Origin: Thermoanaerobaculia bacterium
GTDB taxonomy: Bacteria; Acidobacteriota; Thermoanaerobaculia; Multivoradales; Multivoraceae
Assembly: GCA_963664405.1 (NCBI GenBank)
Contig: OY761158.1
Span: 5,344,001 to 5,408,000 of the forward strand
Length of the DNA stretch: 64,000 nucleotides
Direction: 5' to 3'
Below the pieces are notes generated by a model, which was not told where the DNA came from, did no database searches, and worked only from the letters and a program-made list of their open reading frames with translations. Shown here one piece after another: positions 38,012 to 56,296 of this stretch. Every line of letters starts with the position of its first letter. Position 1 is the stretch's first letter. The position numbers and the translations under genes are program-made.

Positions 38012-39163
38012 GTGACTGACGACGTTGGCACTCCGTCCCGACCCCTCGCTCTGCTTCTGACCGGCGGCGGCGCCAGAGCGGCCTACCAGGTGGGAGTGCT
38101 GCGCTATCTCGCGAAGCTCGACCCCCAGCTCCAGATCCCGATCGTGACTGGAGTCTCCGCCGGCGGCATCAACGCCGCATGCTTGGCTGCCAGTGTCGAT
38201 CGTTTCGACGAGTGTGTCGAGAACCTCTGCGACCTGTGGCTGAGCCTGGATCCCGGTAGCGTCTTCCGAGTCGATTCGTTGAGCCTCGGGCGCGGCGTCT
38301 TGAGTTGGCTACTGCGCCTCTCCTCCGGCGGATCGGAGCTCGCGCCCCAAACTCGAGGCTTGGTGGACACGTCGCCTCTTCGAGACTTCCTTGAAAAGGC
38401 GCTCAACAGCGAACAGGGGGTTCTTGGCGGCATTTCCCGCAACCTGGAGTCGGGGAGACTGAAGGCGGTAGGCCTCACTACGGTCGAGTATGCGACCGGC
38501 CGCACGGTGCTATGGACCCAGGGTGCCGAGGTCCAGGGCTGGCAGAGGCCACAGCGGAGGAGTGTCGAGACCCGCTTCACCGTGGACCACGTGATGGCTT
38601 CAGCCGCTCTGCCGCTCCTCTTCCCGGCGATACGGCTGGAGCACTGCTGGCACGGCGACGGGGGAGTGCGACTTACCAGTCCGCTGTCGCCGGCCATCCA
38701 CATGGGGGCGCGACGCATCCTGGCGATCTCGACCCGCTATAGGCGCACCGCTGAGGAGGCCGCCGATCCTGCCTTGGAGGGATACCCCCCACCGGCGCAG
38801 ATCGCGGGCGTGCTGATGAACGCAATCTTCCTGGATCTGCTCGACCAGGACGCAGTCCATCTCGAGCGAACCAACAGACTGCTCCGCCACGCCAACGACG
38901 CCGGGCGGGAGGATCTCGCGCATGTCGATCTGCTGGTTCTGCGTCCGTCGGTCGATCTCGGCAGGCTGGCCAGCGACTTCGAGGCCCGACTTCCACGCGG
39001 ATTCAGGTTCCTGACCCGAGGCCTCGGCACTCGGGAGACCAAAAGCTCCGACCTCTTGAGCATGCTCATGTTTCAGAGGGACTACGTCGAACGCCTGATC
39101 GAGATCGGCGAGGCCGATGCCGAGGCGCAGCGCGAGGAGATCTCTAGTCTGCTCGCCGTCTAG
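38012..39163 (+). CDS. Patatin-like phospholipase
   Basis: LTGGGARAAYQVG, GVSAG nucleophile elbow, ASAALPLLFP, DGG. Confidence 0.9.
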   Translation: MTDDVGTPSRPLALLLTGGGARAAYQVGVLRYLAKLDPQLQIPIVTGVSAGGINAACLAASVDRFDECVENLCDLWLSLDPGSVFRVDSLSLGRGVLSWLLRLSSGGSELAPQTRGLVDTSPLRDFLEKALNSEQGVLGGISRNLESGRLKAVGLTTVEYATGRTVLWTQGAEVQGWQRPQRRSVETRFTVDHVMASAALPLLFPAIRLEHCWHGDGGVRLTSPLSPAIHMGARRILAISTRYRRTAEEAADPALEGYPPPAQIAGVLMNAIFLDLLDQDAVHLERTNRLLRHANDAGREDLAHVDLLVLRPSVDLGRLASDFEARLPRGFRFLTRGLGTRETKSSDLLSMLMFQRDYVERLIEIGEADAEAQREEISSLLAV

Positions 39164-39325
39164 ACCAGCGTTTCCAGAGTTCGTGCTGCATAGCTCGAGG
39201 TCATTCTGTTCGCTGGCTAGGCGCGCTGACGCAGGCATATTGGGCAATATGTCGAGGAGGCGAAACGACGCCAGCGGGCAGAAGGGCCCGAGATATGTGC
39301 ACGAACTTTGGAAACGCTGGTCTAG
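39160..39325 (+). mobile_element. 166-bp CTAG-bounded palindromic element, family B copy 1
   Basis: Arms CTAGACCAGCGTTTCCAGAGTTCGTGC / GCACGAACTTTGGAAACGCTGGTCTAG; central CATATT-GGGC-AATATG; mobility inferred from dispersal. Confidence 0.8.
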
Positions 39326-39341
39326 GAACCGAGAGGAGGGC

Positions 39342-40391
39342 TCAGGAGGTGGGCTGCGGGCTCCCTTCAGCTTCCAGCTCGCTCGTGTAGGTACCATAGC
39401 GAGCAGCTCCGTTGACCCGTGCGCGGTGGTAGAAGGCTCGCTGTGCGGCCTCGACTTTCTGGTCCGCGCCGCCCCAAGCCTGGAGCGCCGACGCCTGCAA
39501 GGCCCTGCCGTAGGAGAAGCTGAGCTCCCAGGGCGCGCCACCGATCTTGTTCATGGCATCGAGGTGCTGGGTGGCCTCGATCTCGCTCTGCCCTCCTGAG
39601 AGGAACACGATCCCCGGAAGATCGGCTGGAACAGTGCGGAGAAAGCAGTCGATCGTTGCTTGCGCTACTTGTTCGACGCTCGCTTGTTGCTGGCAATCTT
39701 TGCCGGCGATCACCATATTCGGCTTCAGCAAGATGCTACGCAGAGGCACCCGCTGGGCGTAGAGCTCGGCGAAGGTTCGCTGCAGAGTGCGCTCGGTCGC
39801 CCTGAAGCAGTCTTCGAGGCTGTGGGCGCCGTCCATGAGTACTTCTGGCTCGACGATCGGCACCAAGCCCTGCTCGACGCAGATCGCGGCGTAGCGGGCC
39901 AGGGCATGGGCGTTGGCGTCCAGGCAGTAGTCGCTCGGTAGCCCCTCGGTCTGGTCGATAGCGATCACGGCGCGCCACTTGGCGAAACGAGCGCCGAGCT
40001 CCCGATACTCCGCGGCTCGCTCGCGGAGACCGTCGAGGCCTTCCGTCACTTTCTCGCCGGGAGCGCCCGCCAGTGGCTTTGCTCCTTGGTCGACCTTGAT
40101 ACCGGGGTGAATGCCTCTAGATTGCAGAAGCTGCGCGAACGGCGTCCCATTCGAGTCCCGCTGACGTAGAGTCTCGTCGAAGAGGATGACGCCGCTGACC
40201 AGCTCGTCGATGCCGGCGGTGGTGAATAGAAGATCCCGGTAGGCGCGACGCTTCTCTTCGGTGGACTCGACCCGGATCGAGTCGAATCGCTTCTTGATCG
40301 TCGGAGTGCTTTCGTCCGCCGCCAGAATCCCCTTTCCCGGTGCAACCAGGTCCCGAGCGACGGCTTCGAGGTTCGAACTACTTGTGCTCAC
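39342..40391 (-). CDS. Class I fructose-bisphosphate aldolase (animal/plant type)
   Basis: GKGILAADES, GIKVD, FAKWRAV, VPIVEPEV, LLKPNMV, FLSGGQSE, FSYGRALQ. Confidence 0.95.
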   Translation of the reverse strand: MSTSSSNLEAVARDLVAPGKGILAADESTPTIKKRFDSIRVESTEEKRRAYRDLLFTTAGIDELVSGVILFDETLRQRDSNGTPFAQLLQSRGIHPGIKVDQGAKPLAGAPGEKVTEGLDGLRERAAEYRELGARFAKWRAVIAIDQTEGLPSDYCLDANAHALARYAAICVEQGLVPIVEPEVLMDGAHSLEDCFRATERTLQRTFAELYAQRVPLRSILLKPNMVIAGKDCQQQASVEQVAQATIDCFLRTVPADLPGIVFLSGGQSEIEATQHLDAMNKIGGAPWELSFSYGRALQASALQAWGGADQKVEAAQRAFYHRARVNGAARYGTYTSELEAEGSPQPTS

Positions 40392-40448
40392 GGGTGCGTC
40401 CTCTCTGTCGGTCCGGGTTCATGATACTCGACCTCGAGGGGACTCTCC

Positions 40449-40997
40449 TCAGCCTTGAAAGAGGCGGTCGAGGAGGTCTTCGACGATGTCGACTTCGGGT
40501 CCGGCCAGCTTCGCGGGGCCGACGTGGGCGATGCGAAACCAGGCCTCGTGATCTCCAACGGCCACCTGGCGCTCCTCGATGAGCTGGGGTGACCGTGCCG
40601 CAACTACGGGGAGACGAACGAGGTCGGCGGTGGCTGGCGAGTCCGTCGCCGGGGCCGGAACCGCCCCTACGCAGGGCGTCAGAATCTCCCCTTGGATCGT
40701 CTCGACATCATCCAGCTGACCGAGTTTCAACACCGTGGATGTGTCCGTGCCGACCTCGGCTGCCGCCTCTTCCGCGCTCTGCCAGGGATCGTCTCCGGTG
40801 AGCGGAGCCTGGGCAAAGACGGCTCCGCCGCGCGCGGCTTCGTTCAGGCTCGATCGCTGCAACAATATCCACAACTGGCCGTTCTCGACGAAGAGAGGCA
40901 CCAGCGCGGCATGGCGCTCCCCCTCTGTCGCTATCGGGCGGATCGGGATCTCGGCGAGGAGTTTTCGAACCTCCAGAATCCAGCTTTCGGTCACCAT
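40449..40997 (-). CDS. Degenerate Nudix/CoA pyrophosphatase-like protein
   Basis: RHAALVPLFVENGQLWILLQR and LGQLDD...ILTPCVG resemble NudL/CoAse; no intact Nudix box. Confidence 0.5.
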   Translation of the reverse strand: MVTESWILEVRKLLAEIPIRPIATEGERHAALVPLFVENGQLWILLQRSSLNEAARGGAVFAQAPLTGDDPWQSAEEAAAEVGTDTSTVLKLGQLDDVETIQGEILTPCVGAVPAPATDSPATADLVRLPVVAARSPQLIEERQVAVGDHEAWFRIAHVGPAKLAGPEVDIVEDLLDRLFQG

Positions 40998-41016
40998 GGT
41001 TGACGGACAATACCTT

Positions 41017-41182
41017 CGAGTGTTGTGTCTCCGAGATGGCTTGCCAAGAGCTCGAGGTCATTTTGTTCGCTGTCAAGGAGCGACGAGGCAGGCATATTGG
41101 GAATATGTCGACGAGTCGCGACGACGGCAGCGGGCAAAAGGGGCCGAGATATTGGTAAGCCATGTCGGAGACACGGCACTAG
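41017..41182 (+). mobile_element. 166-bp palindromic element, family B copy 2 (different arms)
   Basis: Arms CGAGTGTTGTGTCTCCGAGATGGCTTGCCAA / TTGGTAAGCCATGTCGGAGACACGGCACTAG; shared core GGTCATTTTGTTCGCTG...GCAGGCATATTGGGAATATGTCG. Confidence 0.78.
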
Positions 41183-42777
41183 ATATCTCGCTCGAGAACC
41201 GGACCGCCGAGGGTCGAGAAGCCAGCCACACCGAGGACGTGAGGCTCTATTCGCAGCCGGCTCGGTCCGAGCGGCCGCCGTATCTTGAGCGAGAGTGTTG
41301 CCTCTCCGCCCGGCTCCAGGTCCCTCGGCAGTGGCGGCCACTCCGCCTCGGCGAGCCAGTCTCTTCCTTGGTTGGTGAGCCGAACTTCAAAAGCGATTCC
41401 GCCGTCACCGCGCCGGCCGGCCAGCCATCGCGCGGCGCCGGTATTACGCACGTGAAGATCGAGCACTCGCACAGAGCTCTCTTCCCAAGGGGGGTCGAGT
41501 CCTTCGATCTCGAGGCTCCCTTCGAGGCGGCCCCAGCTCAAGCTCGTGGGCGGTGGCGGCTGAGGCTCGGTTGCCACCCCCGGCGGGAGGGCGGCGAGCT
41601 CTCGGCATGCTTCCGCGACTCGGTCTGCAACTCTGTCGGGGTCGTGCTCGCGGCGCACCCGCTCACGCGCTCGCTCGCCCATGGCCCGAAGCTCCTCGGG
41701 ACGATCGAGGAGATCGCGAATCCTCGCCACAAGGCTGTCGAGCTCCTCCTCGCCTAGCGGAATTCTGGTGATCTCCTCGCCTAGCTCGGCGAACTGAGCG
41801 TAGTCCGAGACCAGAGTCGGCCGGCCCATTGCGAGGAGGCGAAGGTACGACGCTGAAGTCTCGCCGGCGGTGGGGTAGCGCAGGTTGACGCAGAGATCGG
41901 CAGTAGCCATGGCTACGCGGAGTCGATCACGGTCGAGAAAACCGCACAGGTGGACACGCTCGAGGACGCCGGCCTCTCGGGCCTTCGCAGCGAGATCGAA
42001 CTCCGGCGCGACCTCGCCTACGATCAGGAGATGCACTTCGGCGAGCTCCTCTTTGGCCAGGGCTTCGATGACGACGTCGGTCCTCTTGATCGGCGTTTGG
42101 AAGCCGAAGGACCCCACCACCGGCGCTTTCCGAGGTATGCCCAGAGACTCTCGCAGAGCTAGGGTCGACGCCGGTGAAGCCATGGGCTCGAGTGGCATCG
42201 GCATCGGGATCACTCGCACGGTCACATCCTCGACGCCCTCTTGCAGTCGTTCCGCTGCCCAGGAGCTGTGGACGAGGACTCCGCGTTGGGTCTGGACCAG
42301 GGTGCGATGGCAGGGCAGAGCGAAAAGAGGTGCGGTGGGATAGGCGCCCCAGCGCGGCGCCCGGCCGATGGTCGCTCCTACCCAGCCGTGCTCCTCCTGG
42401 AGGCGTTGGCGGTAGAGCGGGAGCTCGACTCGAGCGAGGGTCTGCTCGACGAGGAGATGGTGAAGGAAGAGATCGTGCAGGGTGAGAATGCCGGGATGAG
42501 ATCGGGCGAGATCGAGCACCTTCTGGTGATGGAGATTGTTTCCCATCTGATAGAAGGGGACTCGTCCGTCTTCCCCCAGATGAGTGGTGTCCACTGGCTG
42601 CCAGCGGCCCTCGATCTCGGGCGACACCTCTTCTTCGAGTCGGACTACTCTGAGGTCACAGCGCTCGGCGAGGGCCGGGAGCAGGTCCGCGCTGTAGTCG
42701 GCGATGCCGGAGCGGGTGGGGGGAAGAGGGGAGACGAAATCCAGCCGCAGCCGCGAGCCGGCTTCTCCAGCACTCAT
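41179..42777 (-). CDS. GT4-family glycosyltransferase with C-terminal Ig-like domain
   Basis: SPLPPTRSGIADYS, YQMGNN, LHD, FGFQTPIKR, NLRYPTAGETSAS; ATGA-coupled to prfB. Confidence 0.85.
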   Translation of the reverse strand: MSAGEAGSRLRLDFVSPLPPTRSGIADYSADLLPALAERCDLRVVRLEEEVSPEIEGRWQPVDTTHLGEDGRVPFYQMGNNLHHQKVLDLARSHPGILTLHDLFLHHLLVEQTLARVELPLYRQRLQEEHGWVGATIGRAPRWGAYPTAPLFALPCHRTLVQTQRGVLVHSSWAAERLQEGVEDVTVRVIPMPMPLEPMASPASTLALRESLGIPRKAPVVGSFGFQTPIKRTDVVIEALAKEELAEVHLLIVGEVAPEFDLAAKAREAGVLERVHLCGFLDRDRLRVAMATADLCVNLRYPTAGETSASYLRLLAMGRPTLVSDYAQFAELGEEITRIPLGEEELDSLVARIRDLLDRPEELRAMGERARERVRREHDPDRVADRVAEACRELAALPPGVATEPQPPPPTSLSWGRLEGSLEIEGLDPPWEESSVRVLDLHVRNTGAARWLAGRRGDGGIAFEVRLTNQGRDWLAEAEWPPLPRDLEPGGEATLSLKIRRPLGPSRLRIEPHVLGVAGFSTLGGPVLERDI

Positions 42778-43866
42778 TTAGAGCCCATCTGCGACTTCAG
42801 CCAGGCTTCTATGAAGGGGTCGAGGTCACCGTCGAGCACTCGGTCCGCGTCTCCCATCTCGGCGCTCGTGCGATGGTCTTTTACCATCCGATAGGGATGA
42901 AGCACATAACTGCGGATCTGGCTGCCCCAGGCGATGTCCTGTTTTTCGCCCTCTCGCTCCGCTTGCTCCTCCTTACGTTTCTTCATCTCGGCGTCGTAGA
43001 GGCGGGCACGCAGTATCTTCATCGCCGTGGCCCGGTTCTTGATCTGGCTGCGCTCGTTCTGGCAGGTGGCGACGATATTGGTCGGGAGATGGGTGATTCG
43101 CACCGCCGAGTCGGTGACGTTGACGTGCTGGCCGCCGGCGCCGGACGAACGGTAGGTATCGATGCGCAGGTCTTTGTCGAGGATCTCGATATCGACGTCG
43201 TCGTCGACCTCCGGGTAAACGTAGACCGAGGCGAAGGAGGTATGGCGTCGGCTGGCGGCGTCGAAGGGGCTGATGCGCACCAGGCGATGGACCCCGTTCT
43301 CGCCTTGGAGATAGCCGTAGGCATTGGGCCCACGGATTGCCAGAGTCACGCTCTTGATGCCCGCTTCTTCGCCGTCGAGGCGATCCAAGAGAGCGGCTTC
43401 GAAGTGGTGGCGCTCCGCCCAGCGTAGGTACATGCGGAGCAACATCTCCGCCCAGTCTTGGGATTCGGTGCCGCCCGCCCCTGGGTGCAGTGCCATGAGG
43501 GCGTTGCGCTCATCGTCCGGCCCCGACATCTTGAGCCGGAGATCGAGCTCCGTGAGCTCCTTTGTGAGGCGCTCGAGAAAGGTCTCTGCGTCTGCGTCTG
43601 CCGCACTCGGGTCCTCGGCAATGAGCTCGCGCCAGGTGGCAAGCTCATCGCTGTCCTCCCGCATCTGCAGGAGCAACTTCACTTTCTTTTCGGTGGCGGC
43701 CCGCTTGCGGAGGATGGATTTGTTCTCGTCGGGCCGGTCCCAGAAGCTGGGATCCTCCATCACCCGGTCGAGATCGGCGAGCTCCTTCTCTACCTGGGAT
43801 TCCTCAAAGGAACCCCCTTAGATCGTCGAGGCGCTTGGCGAGGCGGTCGAATTCCTGTGTCTCCAT
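42774..43866 (-). CDS. prfB: Peptide chain release factor 2 (programmed +1 frameshift after codon 20)
   Basis: ATG 43866 METQEFDRLAKRLDDLRGFL, then AGGGGG-TTC-CTT-TGA-G; downstream frame has GAGGTES, SPF, GGQ, WGSQIRSY. Confidence 0.96.
43803..43818 (-). other. RF2 autoregulatory frameshift cassette
   Basis: Internal SD AGGGGG, 3-nt spacer, CTT TGA. Confidence 0.92.
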
Positions 43867-43879
43867 GATGTGGGGTCGC

Positions 43880-45397
43880 TCAGCGCCCTCGGCGGGACGA
43901 CAATATAGCAAAGGACGCGACGGCCAGACAGAGGATTGGCGCGAGCCATGGCAGGCGGGTGTAGGGGCTCAGATCCGCCCCGCCGCGAACGCTCGCCCGC
44001 ACGACTCCCTCTTCGTCGACACCGATCATCTCCACCGCCTGGCCGTTGGCTTCGATCAGGGCCGAGACACCGGTGAGGGCGGCTCGCAGAACCGGTCTGC
44101 GATTCTCGGCGGCGCGGAAGCGGGCGGCGCGTAGGTGCTGCCAAGGCGCCCAGCTATCGCCGTACCAGGCGTCGTTGGTGAGAGTCGTGATCAGGGTCGC
44201 TCCGCTCGCCACCAACTCTGCGACTTCGTGCGGGAAGGTGATCTCGAAGCAGATCGCCACCCCGATCTGCTCTTCCCGCCAGGTCAGAAGGGTCACGCTG
44301 TCGCTGGCCGAGAAGTTACCGGCATTGCGCGCCAGCTTGTCGACGAAGGGAAGGAGCTCGGCAAGAGGAACGTATTCGCCGAAGGGAACGAGGTGGCGCT
44401 TGTCGTAGGCCTGGAGCTGTTGACCCGGCTGGGCCAGGAAGGCGGTGTTGAAGACCTCCTCACCCTGCCATCGAGGCGAGTTGAAAAGGATGGAACAGCC
44501 TTTGTCGACGAGGCGGAGAACGTCTTCTCGCATTTGTCGGTCGCGGGAGAAGGCGTAAGGCCAGGCGGCGCTCTCGGGCCACAGAAGCAGTGCCGGCCGA
44601 TCACAGGCCTCTTCGCTCATTCGAAGTAGCTTTCGGTAGTGCCGCTGTTGCTGCTCGGTCTCGTCCAGCTTCAAGATCCCTAGATTCGGCTGGACGATTC
44701 GTACCTCTCGAGCTTCTCGCGTCGCCAGTTCCGGCTGTGCAAAACGCGATGCGAGAGAGAGCAGAAGGAGAGGCGTAAGGAAGCCGATCGCAATCGGCTC
44801 CCAGCGGCGCCGCGAGAGCCCTTGGGCCAGGCCGACGCTGGGGAGAAGAACCACGAACGACACCCCATAGGCTCCGATCCAGGAGCTGAGGAGGAGGGCT
44901 CCGGGCACCGCAATCCACGCATAGGAGGCGAGGTTCCACGGGAAGCCGCTCAGCAGGTACTGGCGCGAAACCTCGAAGACCGTCCACAGAGCCGGTAGGC
45001 CGAGCATGCCTGTGACCCAGGAGCGCGCCTTCCAGGGGCCGAGGGCGAGCCAGGCGAAGAGCGAGTGATGAAGGGCGAGGTAAGAGCAGAGCAAGACGAG
45101 CAAGAGGTTGCCCAGCCAGCCCGGAAGCTCGCCGAAAGTCGAGATCGTCGGTGCAATCCAGGGGATCGCGACCAGCCAGGTGGCGAGGCCGTGGAGGAAC
45201 CCCCACAACGGCGCTCGCCGCCGATCGAGGAGCAGCATCAAGGGGCAGAGAGCGACCCAGGGTAGAAACAGGAACCCGTTGCGGCCGAAGCAAGCCGCCC
45301 AGATCATGCCGCCTCCCACTGCCACGCCGGCGGCGACCCAGGGCGATTTGAGCCAGCCGACTGTGGAAGCGCCTATGTCTTCGGGCTCAGGGGGCAC
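43880..45397 (-). CDS. lnt: Apolipoprotein N-acyltransferase
   Basis: GFPWNL, VQPN, WPESA, YDKRHLVPFGEYVP, ICFEITF, TNDAWYG, RAAENRR; start uncertain (GTG 45397 used). Confidence 0.93.
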   Translation of the reverse strand: MPPEPEDIGASTVGWLKSPWVAAGVAVGGGMIWAACFGRNGFLFLPWVALCPLMLLLDRRRAPLWGFLHGLATWLVAIPWIAPTISTFGELPGWLGNLLLVLLCSYLALHHSLFAWLALGPWKARSWVTGMLGLPALWTVFEVSRQYLLSGFPWNLASYAWIAVPGALLLSSWIGAYGVSFVVLLPSVGLAQGLSRRRWEPIAIGFLTPLLLLSLASRFAQPELATREAREVRIVQPNLGILKLDETEQQQRHYRKLLRMSEEACDRPALLLWPESAAWPYAFSRDRQMREDVLRLVDKGCSILFNSPRWQGEEVFNTAFLAQPGQQLQAYDKRHLVPFGEYVPLAELLPFVDKLARNAGNFSASDSVTLLTWREEQIGVAICFEITFPHEVAELVASGATLITTLTNDAWYGDSWAPWQHLRAARFRAAENRRPVLRAALTGVSALIEANGQAVEMIGVDEEGVVRASVRGGADLSPYTRLPWLAPILCLAVASFAILSSRRGR

Positions 45398-48291: not shown

Positions 48292-48427
48292 CCGATCTCG
48301 CGGGGCTGGGCTCACTGGCCTGCTTGTGACCTCCAGATCCACCGAGGGAGAGCTCGCGGTGCGCGGGCTCGAGAACTGGGTGAAGTCTAGCACGGAGGTC
48401 GGTGTGGAAACGGGGCGCGAGGGGGAC

Positions 48428-48510: not shown

Positions 48511-48687
48511 TGAAGTTCGAGGGTGGGAAGGAGTCGCGGTGACTCGAATGGCTGGACAGTGTTTATGTAGTAAATGGATAATAAGTTACTATTATGCCGT
48601 GATCAGGAGTGGAAGGGTGCGTCTTCGCTTCTTTGGGGCGAAGGATATTTGGTGTGTAAAGATAATATATATATAATAAATGGATAT

Positions 48688-49671
48688 ATGAAAGAACCAT
48701 CTCCCTCTGGCGGTCTGTCTCCTATGCGGGTGGTGTGTCGGCGTACTGGACTCAGGCCGGAGCTGATCCGCTCGTGGGAACGTAACTACGAGGCCATAGC
48801 ACCGGTGCGCTCGGCTGGGGGGCATCGCCTCTACGCAGAGAAGGACATCGAGCGCTTGCAGCTGCTGCGCCATGCGACCGAGGCCGGTCACCCGATCGGG
48901 CGAATCGCCGGCGTCGACGATGACTCTTTGCGAAAGCTGATCGCGGCGGATGCCAGGGATCGACCGCTGCCGGCGAGTACGTTCGCCACGGGCGGAGACA
49001 TCCACGTCGCAGCGTGCCTCGAGGCGGCTAGCCAGCTCGATCGCTCAGGTCTCGAACAAGCCGTTGAGCGCGCGGAGCTCGAGCTCGGCCGGGTGGCGAT
49101 GGTCGAGGAGGTGCTCGCTCCCCTGGTCGAGGCCATGGGCGAGGCGACTCGGACTGGAGCCTTGCGACCGATGCACGAGCATCTGCTTTCTTCGGTACTC
49201 GTCGCTTCCTCGCAAGGCTTTCGAAGCGCCTTCGCTCAGGCTGGGTCGGCTCCGCGACTGATCGTGACGACACCGGCTCGTCAGCACCACGAGCTCGGAG
49301 CGATTCTCGCGGCCAACGTAGCCGCCGGCGAAGGTTGGCAAGTGACGTATCTCGGCGCCAACCTTCCGGCGGAAGAGATCGCCGCGGCGGTACTCCTGAA
49401 AAAGGCGGCCGCACTTGCGTTGAGCGTCGCCTATCCGCCGGACGATCCGCTGCTGGCGGGTGAGCTTCTTCGCCTTCGCCGACACCTCGGCCCGGCCATC
49501 GCGATCTTGGTTGGCGGGCGCGCTGCAGCCTCGTACCAGTCTGCCTTGAAAGAGACGAATTGCTTCCTCGCCTCAGACTTCAACGCCTTTCGTAGTCTTC
49601 TCGCCAAGCTTCGCTTCGAAGGGGCGGCTGCGACTACTCGGGCCGGGAAGGGTCCAGCAGCGGGCTTCTGA
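48688..49671 (+). CDS. MerR-family regulator with cobalamin-binding domain (CarH/LitR-like)
   Basis: MerR HTH (TGLRPELIRSWERNY...PVRSAGGHRLY), EH motif, QHHELG, YLGANLP, LSVA, VGG. Confidence 0.85.
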   Translation: MKEPSPSGGLSPMRVVCRRTGLRPELIRSWERNYEAIAPVRSAGGHRLYAEKDIERLQLLRHATEAGHPIGRIAGVDDDSLRKLIAADARDRPLPASTFATGGDIHVAACLEAASQLDRSGLEQAVERAELELGRVAMVEEVLAPLVEAMGEATRTGALRPMHEHLLSSVLVASSQGFRSAFAQAGSAPRLIVTTPARQHHELGAILAANVAAGEGWQVTYLGANLPAEEIAAAVLLKKAAALALSVAYPPDDPLLAGELLRLRRHLGPAIAILVGGRAAASYQSALKETNCFLASDFNAFRSLLAKLRFEGAAATTRAGKGPAAGF

Positions 49672-50171
49672 GCACGCGGACTCCGTTGAGCGAGCTGGCG
49701 AGAATGGCGGCCAGCAGCAAAGCCGCGCCGATTCGGATCAGGCTTGCTCTCTCCAGGGTCAGGGCGACAGCCAGAATGGGCACCCCTATGGACCAGGTTC
49801 CGAGCTCCACCGCCGCGATCGTCGCACTGGCGAGGCGATAGGGGGAGTGGGGAGGCGGTCCGCTTCGTGCCATGGCTTGCATCCACACCAGCACCCGGAA
49901 GAGGCGAGTCGCTGCGACGGATCCCAAGGCGGGTGCGTAGAGCCATCGGGGCAATCATGTAGAGCGCGCCGAGGATCGATGAGGTGATCCAGCCGAGAGT
50001 CACCAGGTGAACGACCGCGAGCATGCGCGGGTGGTAGAAGAAACCTGCGAAGCTCTGTGGCCAGGCAACCAGGATGCCGAGCGCACAAGCCAGGCAGAGA
50101 TGGGCAAGGGCGAAGTAGTAGACGGGTAAGCGGCTGGGCGGATCAGGACCGGTCATTTGGTTCGTCGCCAC
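49634..50171 (-). pseudogene. Probable internally deleted multi-TM membrane protein gene (two frames)
   Basis: Frame 1 (...FFYHPRMLAVVHLVTLGWITSSILGALYMIAPMAL...) loses protein-like character at ~49910; frame 2 continues RLFRVLVWMQ...WSIGVPILAVAL...IGAALLLAAIL to stop 49634. Confidence 0.65.
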
Positions 50172-50244
50172 TCCCGGAGTCTAGCCTCCTGGGCCTCCCG
50201 CTCCATCGGTTGACAGCCCACTTGCGCGTGCTAGCGTCCGGTCC

Positions 50245-51285
50245 ATGAACGAGGAGATGTGGTCGGGAGTTTGGGCGGGAGTCAAGAGCATGGAGCCGGC
50301 GAGGCGCCCTCTGGTTGCGCCCGGCCCAGGGGAGGCGCGGCTGCGCATCGAGGCCTGTGGCATCTGCGGCTCCGACCTCCACATCTACCGCGCCCCCGAC
50401 CTCGTCCCCGAGGGGACGACTCTGGGTCACGAGATGGTCGGCGTGGTGGAGAGTGTGGGGGATGAGGTCTCGGAATGGAGAGCCGGAGACCGGGTAACCG
50501 TCGAGCCGCTCATCTCGTGTGGTCGCTGTGAGATGTGCCTCCAGGGCTACGACAATCGCTGCCCGGAGTACGGCATCATCGGGATGCACCAGCCCGGGGG
50601 CTTCTCGGAGCAGATCATCGTTCCCGCTCGCCGTCTCTATAAGGTCTCGGAAGCCTTAGCCGCTCCGGTGGCGGCCCTCAGTGAGCCTGTCGCGGTCGTC
50701 GTCCACGGCCTTCAGCTTGGCGGCTTCACTCCCGGTCAGCAGGTCCTCGTGCTCGGCGGCGGCACGATCGGCCTCTTGACTGTTGCGGTAGCTCGACTCT
50801 GGGGCGCAGGAGACATCGTTCTCACCGCCCGGCATCCCCACCAGGTAGAGCTCGGGCGGAGGCTTGGCGCCAGTGAAGTCTTCGCGCCAGAGGAGGTGAG
50901 CCCGACCGAGCTGCCGCAATTGTTGGAGAGCAGACCCCCGGACCTCGTGGTGGAGACCGTCGGCGGCGAGGCCGACACCTTGGCCGCGGCCGGAGCTGCG
51001 GTCGCCCCCGGCGGCACGGTGGTGGTCCTCGGTGTCTTCACGGCTGAGATCCGGCTCGCCCCCATGCCGCTGCTCAAGAAGGAGGTGTGCTTGCGCTGGT
51101 CGCTCTGCTACACCCGCTCTGAAGCAGGCGCTGACTTCAGTGAGGCGATCGGACTCATCACGGCTCACCCCGAGCTATTCGGCTCCCTCCTCACTCACGA
51201 GCTGCCTCTGGCCGAGATCGGGCGCGGCTTCGCAATCGCCGACGACAAGAGCAGTGGTGCGATCAAGGTAACGGTGGTGCCCTGA
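50245..51285 (+). CDS. Zinc-dependent medium-chain alcohol dehydrogenase
   Basis: CGSDLH, GHEMVG, CGRCEMC-x7-C, EP, GGGTIG. Confidence 0.92.
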   Translation: MNEEMWSGVWAGVKSMEPARRPLVAPGPGEARLRIEACGICGSDLHIYRAPDLVPEGTTLGHEMVGVVESVGDEVSEWRAGDRVTVEPLISCGRCEMCLQGYDNRCPEYGIIGMHQPGGFSEQIIVPARRLYKVSEALAAPVAALSEPVAVVVHGLQLGGFTPGQQVLVLGGGTIGLLTVAVARLWGAGDIVLTARHPHQVELGRRLGASEVFAPEEVSPTELPQLLESRPPDLVVETVGGEADTLAAAGAAVAPGGTVVVLGVFTAEIRLAPMPLLKKEVCLRWSLCYTRSEAGADFSEAIGLITAHPELFGSLLTHELPLAEIGRGFAIADDKSSGAIKVTVVP

Positions 51286-52393
51286 GGTAGTCGACAGTGC
51301 ACACATCCCAGTAGCTCTCGAGGGCGCCGGCGTCGTAGAGCTCCAGGAATCTCGGGATGCTTTGAAGCAAGACTGTGCCTCGGTGGCCGCGTTGCCGCTC
51401 TGGGTGGGGGAGGCCATAGTGGAAATAGGATCGTATGAAGAGGCTGTTATCGCCCAGCGGAAGCGAGCGCAGGTTCTCGACGTAAGAGTCGAAGCGGCCT
51501 TCGCGCAGGAGATAGAACTCGACGTTGGAGGCGTAGAAGGTAGTGACGGTCTCCCCTCGCGACTTTGCCCATGCCCCCAGCTTTCGTAGAGCGTGGGGCC
51601 CGGCCAGGTCGCCCACGACCGGCACGAGTCGACCCGAGCCCGCGAGATTCTTGACGAAGGCGAAGTCTGAGTCTGAAGCGAGAAAGTGGCTTGCCTTCTC
51701 TGTCGGGGTTCTCGCCAAGAGTAGCGAGCGATAGCTCGGGTAGTGTCGCCCCCGCGGTCGGCCGTGGCTGCGGAAGCGGAGCTCCAATTGCTCTCTGAAG
51801 TAGGCCTCGTACATCGAACGAAGACGTCCTCGATCCTCGACGGAGAGGGTGAAGAGAAGCTGCGACTCGATGTGGGTGGTGAAGGCGGCGACATTCTGCT
51901 CGAAGACATCCTGGCTCGATGGCGACGCTTCGACCGCAGCGATGACACCGTTGATGTCGGTCGCTGCCGCCGCCAGAGCTTCCTCATTCGGTGATCTCGC
52001 GAATAGCCGGCACAGGTAGTGATAGGGCGTGGACGACTGGGCGAGGACGGCATTGAGGAGGAGATGGTGGAGCAAGTTGTCGCGGCGGATGTCGACGATG
52101 AAAGCCCAGCTGGGACGAGCTCGAGCGATGTAGTTGAAGTTCTGTTCCGGCCCGACACCGATGTAGACGCCGCCGACTGCATGCACTTGGTCGATGATCT
52201 GTGCGTAGGAGCCTTCGTTCGAGACCAGATTGTCGGTGTCGAAGTAGCCGGCCGGCTCGGAGAGGGCGGCGACGAGATCGACGAGGCGCGACGGTTCCGG
52301 TTCCCGGGCCCGGCTGCCGTGTGGTGGCGCGGCGGTGAGCAGAACGGCGGCCACGAGGCCGGCGCCGAACCTCGAGGCCCTCTTGCCGTGCAC
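51263..52393 (-). CDS. Conserved secreted hypothetical protein with SAM-MTase-like motifs
   Basis: Signal peptide; LSEPAGYFDTDNLVSNE, GGVYIGVGPEQNF, IVDIRR, FYASNVEFYL. Confidence 0.7.
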   Translation of the reverse strand: MHGKRASRFGAGLVAAVLLTAAPPHGSRAREPEPSRLVDLVAALSEPAGYFDTDNLVSNEGSYAQIIDQVHAVGGVYIGVGPEQNFNYIARARPSWAFIVDIRRDNLLHHLLLNAVLAQSSTPYHYLCRLFARSPNEEALAAAATDINGVIAAVEASPSSQDVFEQNVAAFTTHIESQLLFTLSVEDRGRLRSMYEAYFREQLELRFRSHGRPRGRHYPSYRSLLLARTPTEKASHFLASDSDFAFVKNLAGSGRLVPVVGDLAGPHALRKLGAWAKSRGETVTTFYASNVEFYLLREGRFDSYVENLRSLPLGDNSLFIRSYFHYGLPHPERQRGHRGTVLLQSIPRFLELYDAGALESYWDVCTVDYLRAPPLP

Positions 52394-52559
52394 TAGACCA
52401 GCGTTTCCAAAGTAGCGCTACATATCTCGGCCCGTTCTGCCCCGCTGGCGGCGTTGCGCCTCCTCGACATATTCCCCAATATGCCTGCGTCGGCGCGCCT
52501 TGCCAGCGAACAGAATGACCGCGAGCTATTGTAGCGCGACTTTGGAAACGCTGGTCTAG
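52393..52559 (-). mobile_element. 167-bp CTAG-bounded palindromic element, family B copy 3 (inverted; arms like copy 1)
   Basis: CTAGACCAGCGTTTCCAAAGT...ACTTTGGAAACGCTGGTCTAG; core is the reverse complement of the copy 1 core. Confidence 0.8.
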
Positions 52560-52579
52560 CCGTCTCCGGAGGCAACCGC

Positions 52580-53590
52580 TCAGGGGTGGCCCCCGCTACG
52601 GATCGAAGCGGAGCTTCCGGGTTGGCCAACGAAGTCGAGAATCTTTGCCGAGATGGCTTTGTCCGCACGACTCATGGCCAGGACCATGCGGCGATGGCTG
52701 TCGGTTGTAACAGCGAATAGCTCGCTGTCGGCCCCCTCTCGCGCCAAGGCCTGGTGGAGCAGGCGATTCTGGCGCGCCACAACAGGCCACTCTTTGGTGG
52801 TGTGAATGAGCAGAACGGGTGGAGCGTCGCCTTCTATCTTTGGGATCACGGATGCGAACTCACGCCAGTCGACGCCCGGAGTCTCGAGGTCAAAGCGCTT
52901 TGCCCACCAGCTTTGCGATCGGCCGCTGTCCCAACGCTCCTGATCGACGAGGTCGTAAGCGGAGCCGCTGATCAAGATAACGCCGGTGACCTCTTCGGGC
53001 TCGAGCCCGGCGCTGCGCATTTCGTCGCGATCCAGCGCCAGGCGAGCGGCCAGCCAGGCGCCGGCCGAGTGCCCGGACAGGAACACTCTTCCGTCGCCGC
53101 CGTACTCGTGCACGTGACGATGGGCCCAGCGCAGCGCAGCCGCGACGTCGTCGACCTGGTCGGGCCAACGCGCCTCCGGCTGGAGCCGATAGTTGACAAT
53201 CGCGACTCCGATGCCGCGAGCCGCATAGAAACGGCCGAGGTTGCCGTAAATGTTGTAGCCACCCACTCGCAGGTCTTTGTCGCCGTCGGTCAGAGAGCCA
53301 CCGTGAAGGAAGATGAGCAGTGGCCAACCGTCGGTGCCAGGGCGAAAGAGGTTGAGCCTGTGCTTCTCCTCGTCGGCCTCTTCGTCTGTACGGTAGGGGA
53401 GCCCGGCGACAACCTCGCCTCCGCCACTCAGCTCGGCGGGCTCGTAGAAGGGCTTGACGGCTACGCGCACTACGGCCGAGCAGCCCGAGAGAATCACCAG
53501 AGCCGCGAGCAGTTTCGCGGGCAGGAGGCTACGAGACAGCCGTCGCCTCCACCTCGACCATGGGCTCCGGAAATGCGAGCCTATTGACAC
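52580..53590 (-). CDS. Alpha/beta hydrolase (HSL/BD-FAE-like esterase)
   Basis: FLHGGS, VNYRL, DDVAAAL, GHSAG; start uncertain. Confidence 0.88.
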   Translation of the reverse strand: MSIGSHFRSPWSRWRRRLSRSLLPAKLLAALVILSGCSAVVRVAVKPFYEPAELSGGGEVVAGLPYRTDEEADEEKHRLNLFRPGTDGWPLLIFLHGGSLTDGDKDLRVGGYNIYGNLGRFYAARGIGVAIVNYRLQPEARWPDQVDDVAAALRWAHRHVHEYGGDGRVFLSGHSAGAWLAARLALDRDEMRSAGLEPEEVTGVILISGSAYDLVDQERWDSGRSQSWWAKRFDLETPGVDWREFASVIPKIEGDAPPVLLIHTTKEWPVVARQNRLLHQALAREGADSELFAVTTDSHRRMVLAMSRADKAISAKILDFVGQPGSSASIRSGGHP

Positions 53591-53706
53591 CGAGCAGAGT
53601 CTGGGGAGGATTCAAGGGTTCACCGGGGTGCGCTGCATAGGCTCTCTCCTCAGGTCAGGTGACGATCTTCTCGTTTTCCGACCAAGAAGTTTATCCCACT
53701 GAGGTT

Positions 53707-54633
53707 TCAGCTCTCGCTCGCTCCTCGCCGGTTTCGGCTTCTCCGGAGCGCGAGTATCGCGACGATCGCGGCCAGACAGACCAGGGTCGCTATCCGCGGT
53801 CGAATCTGCGCGACCTGCTCGGCGGGGCGGACGAGACCGAGGAGCTCCTGGGCTCTGCCGATCGCGAGACTGATGCGCCCCATGACAGTGTAGCCGAAGG
53901 ACGCTCCGAAGGAGAGCATGAGAATCAGAATCCCGAAGCGGCTCACCCACGGCTTATAGCGGGAAAAGGCAAGAAAGGGGGTGGCCGCCACCAGGCCGGC
54001 GCCGGCGGCTACAAAGGCAAGGGGCAGGCCGGGCAGGTCACCTGGGCGGACGAGGTAGACGGTAACGGTCGCGAGCACGAAGGCGGCGCCGGCGGCCTTG
54101 CTTCCGTGCGCGATTGCCGAAGGCGGCAGCTCGCTGAAGTAAAAGTGCGATAGGCAGGCAACGAGACCCGTGACCAGAAGCACGTCGGAGAAGAGGCCGG
54201 CGCCGTCGGCTTGCCACGACCAGAAACCATGGGTGGCGAAGCTGGTCGCCAGGTCGGGCATGCTCTGGGCGACCTGAGTCATTAGATTGGCGTTTGCCTC
54301 GCCGGTGAGCTTGACGCCAGCGTAGGCCGCGACCAGAAAAGCGATCGGCACTCGAGCGACCCAGGAACGTTTGCGACTGAGCTTGAAGAAGAGGAGAACC
54401 AGCAGAACCAGCGGAACGAAAGAGAGAAGGGTCCCTTGCGCCAGCTTGTCGATCAGATTCGGTTTGAAGACGCCGTAGTACTGCTCGACAATCCCCACCC
54501 CGACCGTGACCCCTAGGAAAGCGTGCTCCGCCAGTTTGTAGATGGGGTTGTCGTTATAGAGAAAGGAGAAGATCGCGAGGGTCAGAAAGATACTGAGCCA
54601 GGCGCCGAGGAGATCGAGAGTGGAGAGCTCCAC
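53707..54633 (-). CDS. Multi-pass membrane protein of GlmL-associated operon
   Basis: LTLAIFSFLYNDNPIYKLAEH...SFGASFGYTVMGRISL; many hydrophobic segments. Confidence 0.75.
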   Translation of the reverse strand: MELSTLDLLGAWLSIFLTLAIFSFLYNDNPIYKLAEHAFLGVTVGVGIVEQYYGVFKPNLIDKLAQGTLLSFVPLVLLVLLFFKLSRKRSWVARVPIAFLVAAYAGVKLTGEANANLMTQVAQSMPDLATSFATHGFWSWQADGAGLFSDVLLVTGLVACLSHFYFSELPPSAIAHGSKAAGAAFVLATVTVYLVRPGDLPGLPLAFVAAGAGLVAATPFLAFSRYKPWVSRFGILILMLSFGASFGYTVMGRISLAIGRAQELLGLVRPAEQVAQIRPRIATLVCLAAIVAILALRRSRNRRGASES

Positions 54634-54634
54634 T

Positions 54635-55486
54635 TCATGCCTCCTTGTGATGGCGGGTGAGAAAGTAGGCGACGTTGCCGACGATGAGAAGAACGATGAT
54701 GAAAACGTGGCCGAGATTGAGTACGTTCACTGCCAGCGTGGCGAGCTTGCGCACTCCCTCGGGTGCCTCCTCGGGCCACACCAGCTTCTCGTATTGGGCC
54801 GACCCAGGCATGCCGGCAGCCAGCCCCACCAGCTGGCCGGCCTTGTAGAAGGGAATGTAGTCCGGTCCCGATACTGCGGTCGTAGAGGAGACCATGCGCA
54901 GATCGTGCTGGCCCTGGATCTGGAGGACGTACTCGCGAGTGCCCGGCGAGCCCGCCGAGACCAGCACCAGAAGGTCGAAGTCGCGGGCCTGCTTGAGGCC
55001 CTGCATGATCGGCAGCTCGCTCAGCGGTGCTCCTCGATAGTCCGACGGAAAGGCCTTGGTTATGTTTTCGCCGATGGCTTTGATCGCTAGCTCCTGCCCG
55101 GGTTTGTAGCCGAGGAAGGCATAGTCGGTGCCGTACTCGTAGTCGTAGCTGGGACTGACTTCGTCGAGGTAGCTGACGACAAGCGGCGGAGCGAACTCCC
55201 ACAGGCACAGCACCACGATCTTGATGTCCTGTCGCATCAGATGATGAAGGTTGGCGCGAAAAAACGGACCGATCTCCGGCAGCCCCGCGGGATCGAAGTC
55301 GGCCGAGATCAGGACTCGCGAGCCTGGCTCCAACTCTTCTATTGCGTCGTAGACCGCCCTGACTCGCTCATCGACCCTGAACGGTAGGTCGACCGGATAG
55401 AGCATTGGAATCAGGATGGCGAAACCCATGCCGAGGAAGATCCACCGGCGGTCCATTTGCAAGAAACGGAGCAGCAGTCTTCGCAT
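54635..55486 (-). CDS. Membrane-anchored alpha/beta protein of GlmL-associated operon
   Basis: ATG 55486 (TGATG overlap): MDRRWIF...YEYGTDYAFLGYKPG...PFYKAGQLVGL...AQYE; N- and C-terminal TM. Confidence 0.75.
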   Translation of the reverse strand: MRRLLLRFLQMDRRWIFLGMGFAILIPMLYPVDLPFRVDERVRAVYDAIEELEPGSRVLISADFDPAGLPEIGPFFRANLHHLMRQDIKIVVLCLWEFAPPLVVSYLDEVSPSYDYEYGTDYAFLGYKPGQELAIKAIGENITKAFPSDYRGAPLSELPIMQGLKQARDFDLLVLVSAGSPGTREYVLQIQGQHDLRMVSSTTAVSGPDYIPFYKAGQLVGLAAGMPGSAQYEKLVWPEEAPEGVRKLATLAVNVLNLGHVFIIVLLIVGNVAYFLTRHHKEA

Positions 55487-56124
55487 CAGTCTGCTCCCAG
55501 GTGGCTGCGCTCGAGGCCGAGAATGATGCGCAACCCGGTGGCGACGGCACCTAGAGCGGCGCCGATGAAGATGGCTCGCCTTGCCGCAATGTTCGGCACG
55601 TCCATCATCCAGTTCATGAACTGCGGCAGGCGCTCTCCGATGAAGGGCAGGTCCTCGCCGATCGGAACGCGGGCGAGCATGACGACGCACGCAGCGACCA
55701 GCAGCACTGTAGCCTCGAGATTGCGCGCGCGGAAAGCCCGAAAAGCCGCGGTGGCAATGTAGAAGGCGAGTAGAGCGAACATGGTCGCGTTGAGCGGAGT
55801 GAGAACGAAGTCGAAGAACCAACGGTAAATCTGTCCCGGCTGGCTGCGATCGGTCCCGCCCGCGAAGCCGATGACCATGGTGGCGACCAGACATACCAGC
55901 ATGACGGTCTTGTAAGCCCAATCCTTCTCACGATGCACGATCTTGGGAAGGTTGACCTGAATCATGTTGATCAGTCCGAGAACAAAGGCTCCCGCGGCCA
56001 GAATCAGCCCCCACTCGAGGATGTCCTCGGTGACGAGGTGATAGCCGTAGTGGGGGATAAAGAACTCCCCGATCATGAAAATGCCGACGACGAAAGTGAC
56101 GACGAGGGGCAGAGTTGAGCGCAT
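55486..56124 (-). CDS. Membrane protein (about 5-6 TM) of GlmL-associated operon
   Basis: PLNATMFALLAFYIATAAFRAFRARN...PNIAARRAIFIGAALG...RIILGLER. Confidence 0.75.
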   Translation of the reverse strand: MRSTLPLVVTFVVGIFMIGEFFIPHYGYHLVTEDILEWGLILAAGAFVLGLINMIQVNLPKIVHREKDWAYKTVMLVCLVATMVIGFAGGTDRSQPGQIYRWFFDFVLTPLNATMFALLAFYIATAAFRAFRARNLEATVLLVAACVVMLARVPIGEDLPFIGERLPQFMNWMMDVPNIAARRAIFIGAALGAVATGLRIILGLERSHLGAD

Positions 56125-56129
56125 AGGGG

Positions 56130-56296
56130 CTAGTGTCCTGTATCAGTGGTTCGTTGCATAAATCGCGCAGTCATTTTGGGTGCTGCCAAGGCGCTACGAC
56201 GAAGGCATATTGGGCAATATTGCTAGGAGGAGCAACGACGGCGGCGCGCAAAAGGGCCAGCGAGTTGTGGGACGAACTACTGGTACAGGACACTAG
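56130..56296 (+). mobile_element. 167-bp CTAG-bounded palindromic element, family B copy 4 (third arm type)
   Basis: Arms CTAGTGTCCTGTATCAGTGGTTCGT / ACGAACTACTGGTACAGGACACTAG; core GTCATTTTG...AAGGCGC...AGGCATATTGGGCAATAT...GGAGGAGCAACGACGGC. Confidence 0.78.

Follow-up and report, generated by a model that had tools for sequence, protein, structure and literature searches.

The four repeats found in the 64,000-nucleotide stretch of DNA analyzed here (the window) very probably belong to a highly abundant family of foldback MITEs of approximately 166 bp and of the IS630/Tc1-mariner kind, in which a conserved core folds on one strand. When re-examining the window, we found the four CTAG-bounded copies of 166–167 bp exactly as the initial annotation had described them, including the single end that reads CGAG. 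Their mean column identity was 82%. Scanning the window with the covariance model of the family returned precisely these four copies, together with low-scoring echoes on the reverse strand for three of the four. It had also been noted that no mobilizing enzyme is encoded nearby, and PF01797, PF13358, PF01609, and PF04986 all had zero matches inside the window.

Table. Positions of the four family members in the window, with the parts of copy 1.
Feature	Position	Strand	Description
Copy 1	39160..39325	+	Subfamily s0 (the commonest); core strand is +
Copy 1, left arm	39160..39191	+	Terminal inverted repeat, CTAG plus ~28 nt; pairs with 39294-39325
Copy 1, conserved core	39212..39275	+	Closing helix GCTGGC/GCCAGC, AAGG..CGC, GACG, apical hairpin, GAGGAG, AAC bulge; delimited by (nearly) invariant columns and pairing
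Copy 1, apical loop GGGC	39242..39245	+	Other copies of the genome have an IS91-like insertion near the equivalent point
Copy 1, right arm	39294..39325	+	Partner of the left arm
Copy 2	41017..41182	+	Subfamily s3; left end mutated to CGAG
Copy 3	52393..52559	- (core on minus strand)	Young sub-lineage of s0
Copy 4	56130..56296	+	Subfamily s1, arm CTAGTGTCCTGT...

The left CTAG of copy 1 provides the TAG stop of the ORF at 37910-39163, and the right CTAG of copies 2 and 4 provides the stop of a minus-strand ORF (41179-42777 and 56293-57546, respectively). Copy 3 lies approximately 20 nt downstream of the stop of the ORF at 52580-53590; counting itself, 12 copies in the genome share at least 98.8% identity with it. 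With crude gene calls, the core strand is sense to the adjoining minus-strand genes in copy 3 and antisense to the neighbors in copies 2 (both adjoining genes) and 4, as had been reported before.

The window derives from the 6.78-Mb genome of an uncultured member of Acidobacteriota (G000). A profile of the four copies matched 262 loci in this genome, of which 185 were full-length (164–180 bp) and 34 contained the core only, the latter being copies of a sixth arm type. The copy number is thus far above chance. Six subfamilies were distinguished (n=129, 22, 22, 16, 11, and 7). The initial annotation had recognized three arm sequences and considered them largely unrelated; the genome contains at least six arm types, and these have in common the CTAG, an invariant G at position 11, a T at position 12 and, mostly, a GTTCG-like block near position ~20. 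Both ends were CTAG in 145 of the 185 full-length copies. Variant ends were asymmetric (for example CTAG/CTAA in seven copies and TTAG/CTAG in four), the outer two bases varied more than the inner two, and none of the 185 copies had an identical non-CTAG variant at both ends. Ten 29-bp elements consisting of a single arm were also found, each CTAG-bounded and itself a small hairpin. The family accordingly has the features of a MITE: it is short, non-coding and dispersed in many copies, and its arms, which pair end to end, are terminal inverted repeats.

To examine the fold, we used a structural alignment of 41 sequences from this and 33 other genomes, containing 59 base pairs. Compensatory changes were present in 55 of the 59 pairs. 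The proportion of paired cells was 90.3%, as compared with 35–44% when the partner strand was slid, and none of 500 shuffles reached the observed values. The wobbles were distributed unevenly between the strands (216 G.T versus 41 A.C in the alignment), and the same was seen in the folds of individual sequences (98 versus 10 in the arms and 147 versus 4 in the core) and in the subfamily consensuses (44 versus 0). In each of the 205 copies, the predicted fold was more stable on the core strand than on the complementary strand, the difference being 14–37 kcal/mol on subfamily means. The changes private to single copies were nearly even (55 G.T versus 42 A.C). The earlier suggestion that selection acts on a single-stranded structure is borne out by these results, and covariation, the lack of which would have spoken against it, is plainly present.

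The core of approximately 60 nt consists of a closing helix, a junction formed by AAGG and the AAC bulge, a helix of 5 bp, a GACGA/GAGGA stretch capable of the pairings G.A, A.G, C-G, G.A, and A.G, and a variable apical hairpin. The core is conserved while the arms change, and the whole rod stays paired through compensatory changes and one-strand G.T wobbles.

The initial annotation regarded this pattern as the opposite of that of a MITE, a reading that our results do not support. Comparison with insertion sequences of the same bacterial order showed the arms to be terminal inverted repeats like those at the ends of IS630-family (DDE_3) elements. The IS630-like elements of related genomes are CTAG-bounded and have terminal repeats resembling the arms. 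The closest resemblance was within one relative (G090), where the left arm of the element matched the left repeat of an IS630-like element at 27 of 31 bases and the right arm matched at 25 of 31. The s2 arm matched an IS630-like element of G036 at 20–21 of 31 positions, with the first 15 bases identical, and the s5 arm matched one of G041 at 22–23 of 31. In the source genome itself, the IS630-like copy at 5164179-5165423 is likewise CTAG-bounded; the ends of the two IS630-like copies in this genome are, however, unlike the arms (19/31 to s5 and 14/31 to s0). An autonomous element with matching terminal repeats was found in G090 and not in the source genome, where arm searches outside the copies gave only relics and mini-elements. 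Of the 151 genomes of the order, 34 had IS630-like genes detected with one query and 83 had the element, a loose co-occurrence, and the same query gave no match in several high-copy genomes (G005, G043, G053, and G145). The core was absent from the 11 IS630-like loci examined.

Paralogous empty sites in the genome had a single CTAG or a close variant of it. Copy 1 was absent from contigs of related strains in four of four runs, with one CTAG remaining at the site. For copy 2, a contig of run X11 contained a clean empty site with a single CTAG, and run X6 had a 164-bp deletion between GACA repeats. The empty single-CTAG sites for which the initial annotation had advised looking thus exist, both at paralogous sites and among strains, and the presence or absence of copies in close strains indicates that the family moved recently. 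With CTAG at both ends of the element and one CTAG at empty sites, the duplication fits either 2 bp (TA) or 4 bp (CTAG).

The gene context was typical of a MITE: 69 copies were in convergent, 94 in tandem, and 24 in divergent contexts, whereas convergent and divergent arrangements were equally frequent in the genome background (919 each). Based on crude gene calls, 83 gene stops (44 + 39) coincided with a terminal CTAG; many copies reuse the TAG of a stop codon, and the stop is thereby retained. The orientation relative to genes was random, the core strand being sense in 44 and antisense in 50 tandem contexts, sense in 67 and antisense in 86 cases near gene 3' ends, and 43 versus 42 near 5' ends. 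Of 208 copies, 84 had the core strand as the leading-strand sequence, a weak replication bias of approximately 60:40.

Within the order, full-length matches were present in 83 of the 151 genomes and in 47 of 64 genera. The core pattern was found at no fewer than 121 loci in MAGs and isolates labeled with about ten phyla; the labels included Planctomycetota, Acidobacteriota, Pseudomonas, Janthinobacterium, Myxococcota, Binatia, Thermodesulfobacteriota, Nitrospirae, Omnitrophota, Clostridiales, and others. Among the matches listed, 103 loci had full flanks, and 92 of these fold to rods of 150–179 nt; the core strand folded better in 97 of the 103, with 437 G.T versus 49 A.C wobbles. Across these phyla, the G.A-rich core of approximately 60 nt is thus located in rods of approximately 165 nt. 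Rfam gave no match at the gathering score over the window and none at E values up to 10 over positions 39100-41300, and our literature search found no published description of such a family. A known MITE, REP, or Rfam family, which would have overturned the original interpretation, was therefore not encountered.

The results suggest the following course of events. An IS630-like transposase would bind the arms and move the element in trans by cut-and-paste, and the TA inside CTAG would be duplicated on insertion. IS630 is described as a cut-and-paste element with TA duplication. The arm subfamilies would correspond to different transposase lineages, and the element lineages that keep spreading would be those selected for the one-strand fold, either as RNA or as single-stranded DNA. 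Under such selection, the core would act in cis in the propagation of the element itself and would not be a signal for adjoining genes. DDE cut-and-paste is not known to have a strand-specific single-stranded step, and the mechanism thus leaves the wobble asymmetry unexplained.

The strand-specific fold and the ten single-arm hairpins could also be accounted for by a REPIN-like doublet moved as single-stranded DNA by a RAYT (HUH Y1) enzyme, with CTAG corresponding to the GTAG tag and the 29-bp arms to REP singlets. The genome contains 13 Y1 matches, and the six tested matched the RAYT model NF047646 at 40–59 bits, all of them under the curated cut-off of 80. The Y1 genes are themselves multi-copy mobile units of approximately 1–1.3 kb, and a copy of the element was within 300 bp of only 1 of the 13, which is about the level of chance. 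Moreover, the phyletic patterns are opposite: in genus g11, the element was present in 14 and Y1 in 0 of 19 genomes, whereas in family f9 the numbers were 2 and 21 of 21. As the RAYT-like genes neither adjoin the copies nor are co-distributed with them, as the arms match IS630-like terminal repeats, and as the replication-strand bias is weak, this reading, which the initial annotation had put forward, is largely refuted and highly improbable. Single-strand transposition of the IS200/IS605 type is accompanied by a strong orientation bias relative to replication, which the above distribution does not have. An integron attC site is not supported either: the copies occur one by one at the ends of genes, not in cassette arrays, and no RYYYAAC/GTTRRRY pair was visible by eye in the conserved columns. 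It is very unlikely that the family is instead a MITE of the IS5 family that truly duplicates the 4-bp CTAG and is mobilized by a DDE_Tnp_1 element of the genome. The CTAG at both ends, the single CTAG at empty sites, and 26 PF01609 matches in the genome are compatible with this, and PMC3189936 offers a precedent in MITEPsy1, a MITE related to IS5 whose CTAG target is duplicated. However, nowhere outside the copies do the arms adjoin a transposase gene, the matching IS630-like elements of relatives are themselves CTAG-bounded, and the end variants are one-sided, never shared by both ends of a copy.

Two units of 2.7 kb, in which the halves of a copy surround genes for a tyrosine recombinase and an IS91-type (Y2) transposase, were found at different places, with the homology starting and ending exactly at the CTAGs of the element. 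If these were the autonomous parent and the short elements rolling-circle deletion derivatives, strand specificity would follow from the rolling-circle mode. We consider this extremely improbable: the insert of 2.5 kb is bounded by IS91-type ends of its own, which resemble those of a second IS91 family whose five copies adjoin CTTG-type targets and are not located inside element copies; the two inserts differ by 2.7%, whereas the examined flanking halves are identical to each other; and no other subfamily has such a partner. In another copy, a third, decayed insert was found in the opposite orientation and at a slightly shifted position in the apex, which argues for repeated insertion into the hairpin tip. 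Somewhat unlikely, in our opinion, is that the selected unit is a structured non-coding RNA of approximately 165 nt on IS630-type ends, i.e., a mobile RNA gene with a core bound by a universal host factor. The G.U-type asymmetry, the tandem G.A motifs, the conserved AAC bulge, and the G-rich apical loop, all on one strand, are in line with an RNA, as are the maintenance of the core across phyla while the arms change and the rod length held at approximately 150–179 nt. Against it, there is no bias in gene orientation, no conserved promoter was seen by eye, and Rfam had no match even at the permissive E value; furthermore, the private mutations look neutral, indicating that single copies are not maintained. 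Of the original proposal, the preference for a DNA-level or independently mobile element over a cis-acting mRNA signal agrees with the random orientation, but not its specification as an HUH/RAYT substrate, an attC site, or solely a structured RNA.

Returning to the IS630-type MITE, we tentatively propose that its core may function as a single-stranded module, in the form of a structured RNA or of a DNA hairpin to which a universal host factor binds, carried on IS630-type ends through about ten phyla. It would then be a bacterial counterpart of CORE-SINEs or evidence of an undescribed strand-specific step in the multiplication of miniature elements of the Tc1/IS630 type. CORE-SINEs and similar eukaryotic SINE superfamilies have a conserved central domain, and their enzyme-recognized parts differ between families. 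The present family is likewise a non-autonomous superfamily with a conserved center and variable enzyme-recognized parts; however, CORE-SINEs are RNA-mediated eukaryotic retroposons and the present family is a bacterial DNA-transposon derivative.

Among bacterial repeats, RUP of Streptococcus pneumoniae has been linked to an IS630-type transposase. RUP is listed as a 107-bp MITE (PMC3184786), and MITEEc1 (ERIC) of ISfinder is listed as IS630-related (PMC11602168). Like these IS630-family MITEs, the elements described here are small, non-coding, hairpin-forming foldback units, mostly intergenic, with a TA-centered target and IS630-like terminal repeats; unlike them, their center is more conserved than the ends and common to several phyla, and their fold is strand-specific. 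No homology to the central region of ERIC was found: the core models R1 and R2 gave no matches in Escherichia coli K-12 at E values up to 1 and 10, and the best scores at ERIC positions were 8.8 and 6.7 bits (E 1.7 and 7), which are not significant. The likeness of the ERIC central hairpin by eye is only a loose AAGGCG...CAACGCA.

Correia/NEMIS of Neisseria and bcr1 of Bacillus are, in the portion of PMC3184786 that deals with them, abundant repeats of ~100–160 bp with long hairpins, and compensatory changes keeping an RNA-level structure are reported for bcr1. The present family shares the abundance and the long hairpin with both, and the compensatory changes with bcr1; those repeats are confined to one genus or group, whereas the core described here is found in about ten phyla, flanked by differing ends. 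With REPINs it shares the long imperfect hairpin of two inverted arms, the single-arm relics, the tetranucleotide end tag, and compensatory evolution, but it has no associated RAYT gene, its distribution is opposite to that of RAYT-like genes, and its ends are IS630-type terminal repeats. The MITE-like R6 repeat of Pseudomonas fluorescens Pf0-1, of which the pertinent passage of PMC2718517 gives 50 copies of 177 bp with 34-bp inverted repeats, fits the Pseudomonas members of the family in size, inverted repeats, and host genus, a comparison based on its description only. The MITE kind itself is thus already known; what is new is an unusually conserved variant, whose center is kept across phyla.

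The family accounts for many of the repeats beside TAG stops in these genomes and creates strain-level insertion polymorphisms, and its covariance model is ready for use in annotation. The interior of a MITE is usually treated as junk between two transposase-binding ends. In the present family, conservation is highest in the interior, which has a precise one-strand fold and is found in hosts as different as Pseudomonas, Planctomycetota, and Acidobacteriota. Should the core aid the spread of the element, Tc1/IS630-type transposition would have an unrecognized cis requirement or a partner in the host; should it be an RNA, it would represent an RNA family that is widespread and unannotated and reaches hundreds of copies per genome.

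The four copies, numbered 1 to 4 in their order along the window, read as the initial annotation had described them and gave an alignment of 168 columns with a mean identity of 82%. When the genome (6,780,313 bases, 62.6% G+C) was searched with a profile of these copies, 262 loci matched, of which 185 were full-length copies (164–180 bp; CTAG at both ends in 145), 34 had only the centre in common with the window copies and represent a further arm type, and the remainder were halves, relics or longer variants. Clustering at 90% identity yielded six subfamilies with distinct arms (types s0–s5), comprising 129, 22, 22, 16, 11, and 7 copies. Identity to copy 3 was 98.8% or higher in twelve copies, copy 3 counted in. 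Length variants were seen in the main subfamily: approximately 24 copies of 177–180 nt whose core has an insert in its 3' half, and about ten of 244–257 nt with a repeated inner segment. The genome also contained ten 29-bp mini-elements, each a small hairpin made of a single s3-type arm flanked by two CTAGs with an identical junction throughout; either they are mobile nano-elements or they arise regularly by deletion.

Folding with RNAalifold was performed on 13 and then on 41 sequences (7 from this genome and 34 from 33 other genomes, including an unpublished sequence of genome G157 on which no claim rests), and the consensus was a single long rod in both cases. The covariation that the initial annotation had proposed to look for was found, as 55 of the 59 pairs had changed on both sides in the 41 sequences; such compensatory counts are inflated by relatedness, whereas a control with the partner slid by 1–3 columns, which is free of that effect, lowered the proportion of paired cells from 90.3% to 35–44%. 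None of 500 shuffles equalled the real alignment on all five measures. The reported wobble bias on the core strand, i.e. the strand on which the core is read, was also borne out, with 216 G.T vs 41 A.C mismatches on the alignment and, in ViennaRNA folds of individual sequences, 98 vs 10 in the arms and 147 vs 4 in the core. Of 205 copies in the genome, all 205 folded better on the core strand than on the complementary one, the energy gap arising because the purine mismatches of the core become pyrimidine mismatches on the other strand. The six subfamily consensuses held 44 G.T and no A.C single mismatches, the others being mostly G.A or G.G, whereas changes confined to one or two copies were nearly balanced (55 G.T vs 42 A.C). 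We therefore read the bias as selection on lineages that keep spreading, and not on each resident copy or as a mutational bias.

In the core, a closing helix and then AAGG preceding GCGC form the outermost parts, followed inwards by a covarying 5-bp helix, often with tandem G.A. GACGA lies opposite GAGGA, the core hairpin has a covarying stem and a G-rich loop, and the 3' side carries an AAC bulge. The central pair is supported by its change from C-G to G-C (GACG/GAGGAG vs GAGG/GACGAG), seen in subfamilies s3 and s4. Readings of the core as a promoter, terminator, coding or dif-like sequence, considered by eye, were dropped, since the apical stem covaries instead of conserving its sequence.

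The family moves, and it moves into CTAG. Empty sites with a single CTAG, another check suggested at the outset, were found both in paralogues and in contigs of related strains. Three copies are nested in other repeats or in paralogous stretches, whose intact versions have one CTAG, or CTAA/CTGA. Copy 1 was missing from related-strain contigs in four of four public metagenome runs, and copy 2 was precisely missing from a contig of run X11, one CTAG remaining in each case; a contig of run X6 was short of 164 bp of copy 2 through a deletion between two GACA repeats. Element copies at 1958305 and 6225673 have as their target a second very abundant repeat of approximately 85–125 bp, which is partly tandem and contains a CTAG-bounded hairpin of the GAAAATGAT...ATCATTTT type.

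By crude gene calls (4,888 ORFs selected by codon-position G+C), the copies lay in 69 convergent, 94 tandem, and 24 divergent contexts, against a genome background of 919 convergent and 919 divergent, and 21 copies fell within gene calls. The TAG of a terminal CTAG served as the stop codon at 83 gene ends (44 + 39), including those at copies 1, 2, and 4. The core strand was sense in 44 and antisense in 50 tandem contexts, 67 and 86 near 3' ends, 43 and 42 near 5' ends, and 31 and 52 at stop overlaps (p = 0.03); thus, orientation relative to transcription follows no clear rule. By cumulative GC skew, replication starts near 2.75 Mb and ends near 6.77 Mb, which makes the two replication arms unequal (approximately 2.8 vs 4.0 Mb). 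Of 208 copies, 84 carried the core strand as leading-strand sequence (p = 0.007), a weak bias.

The initial annotation had compared the element with the substrates of RAYT-type enzymes. The genome has 13 PF01797 matches, which are HUH Y1 paralogues of approximately 300 aa. The RAYT model is the closest model for them, but the six genes tested scored 40–59 bits, none reaching the cut-off of 80. They are small multi-copy units, near-identical pairs of which delimit mobile units of approximately 1.0–1.3 kb, and only 1 of the 13 has an element copy within 300 bp. The Y1 family occurs in 107 of the 151 genomes of the order, with a distribution opposite to that of the element: in one genus (g11) 14 of 19 genomes have the element and none of the 19 a Y1 gene, whereas in one family (f9) the element is in 2 and the Y1 gene in all of 21 genomes. 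Because of the low scores, the lack of adjacency and the opposite distribution, RAYT-like Y1 proteins were rejected as movers, and the proposal of a RAYT substrate is not supported.

PF13358 gave two matches in the genome, and PF13359 (Harbinger-like) none. The complete IS630-like copy is bounded by CTAG, as are the IS630-like elements of relatives (approximately 1.11–1.16 kb). Its ends have only some positions in common with the arms (19/31 with s5). Among the relatives, the IS630-like element of G041 agreed with s5 at 22–23/31 positions, the first 15 bases of that of G036 were identical to arm type s2, and in G090 the arms of the element and the IS630-like terminal repeats agreed at 27/31 and 25/31 bases. 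The core was absent from the inside of IS630-like elements at 11 of 11 loci examined, the single core match near such loci (locus L071 of G090, 2251–2335) being a separate copy to the right of the cognate IS630-like element, approximately 40 bp past its end. No insertion sequence of the genome under study was found to carry the arms, and IS630-like genes were found with one query in 34 of the 151 genomes of the order. Within these limits, the terminal-repeat matches in relatives point to mobilization in trans by IS630-type transposases as the best-supported inference. A likeness of the core halves to the codons at the start and end of IS630-like genes was too short to count.

Features of the genome (chromosomal coordinates, except for copies 1–4, which are in window coordinates)
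Feature	Position	Remark
Copy 1	39160–39325	+ strand
Copy 2	41017–41182	+ strand
Copy 3	52393–52559	− strand
Copy 4	56130–56296	+ strand
Length variants, main subfamily	e.g. 135396–135574, 481085–481341	
29-bp mini-elements	e.g. 515322, 970858, 1386504, 2162938, 4678297, 5442159, 6310368	
Second abundant repeat	e.g. 1964971–1965439, 4271418–4271981	
HUH Y1 paralogues	e.g. 2074073–2075008, 5855887–5856822	13 places
Complete IS630-like copy	5164179–5165423	
2.5-kb element	6272417–6275122, 6758844–6761549	loci L001 and L003
Decayed insert, remnant	2170967–2171086	
Second IS91-family element	36294, 41948, 598351, 616615, 888670	
IS21-family element	6281697–6285335	locus L002

At two loci, a 2.5-kb element encoding a tyrosine recombinase (PF00589) and an IS91-type transposase (PF04986 + PF14319) sits in the hairpin tip of copy-3-type elements whose flanks differ, and a third, decayed insert lies near the tip of another copy in the opposite orientation. 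The 2.5-kb element seems to target the hairpin apex of the copies; the alternative of an IS91-plus-integrase composite as the parent was dismissed, repeated insertions at the tip being the preferred reading. A second IS91-family element of approximately 2.6 kb, present in five copies, has CTTG or TTTG abutting one end, and IS91 targets are of this type. An IS21-family element with IstA/IstB-like ORFs in a copy-1-type element was set aside as a plain insertion.

Rfam gave no match at the gathering score or at E values up to 10. The family is not described in the available portions of MITE surveys and reviews (PMC11602168, PMC3189936, PMC3184786, PMC10969869, PMC2718517), although the supplements of PMC11602168 may list members. 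ISfinder files ERIC under IS630 (PMC11602168); models gave no significant match indicating homology to ERIC. MITEPsy1/2 and Chunjie have ends and duplications unlike those of the window element and were rejected as its identity. The P. fluorescens Pf0-1 repeat R6 may be a family member (PMC2718517). The element is a MITE of the IS630 type, an ordinary kind, and the main inference of the initial annotation, which set it against classical MITEs, therefore fails.

With a full-length model (up to 18 matches scored per genome), matches of 164–168 nt were found in 83 of the 151 genomes and 47 of the 64 genera of the order. A degenerate core pattern detected at least 121 loci with one genome per species. 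Among the matches listed (80 titles; labels are the depositors', and MAG binning errors are possible) were Planctomycetota, Acidobacteriota (Thermoanaerobaculia, Terriglobia), Myxococcota, Binatia, Pseudomonas, Janthinobacterium, Tahibacter, Woeseia, Aquisalimonas, Thermodesulfobacteriota, Desulfuromonadales, Bdellovibrionaceae, Nitrospirae, Omnitrophota, Longimicrobiales, and Clostridiales/Oscillospiraceae MAGs. Cultured carriers among the matches include Janthinobacterium psychrotolerans S3-2, Tahibacter soli, and Pseudomonas isolates. A plasmid collection contained no match to a window copy or to a Pseudomonas copy. The 103 fully flanked loci among those detected with the core pattern included 92 rods of 150–179 nt; 97 of the 103 folded better on the core strand, with 437 G.T vs 49 A.C. 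Of the 102 core-pattern loci with wide enough flanks, 38 had a CTAG at each end and the others had related ends. Four pattern-fixed blocks are invariant by construction, whereas the covarying helices and further conserved columns are independent of the pattern. The element is an unusual MITE, in that the interior is its conserved part, a strand-specific fold is kept, and it is common to several phyla.
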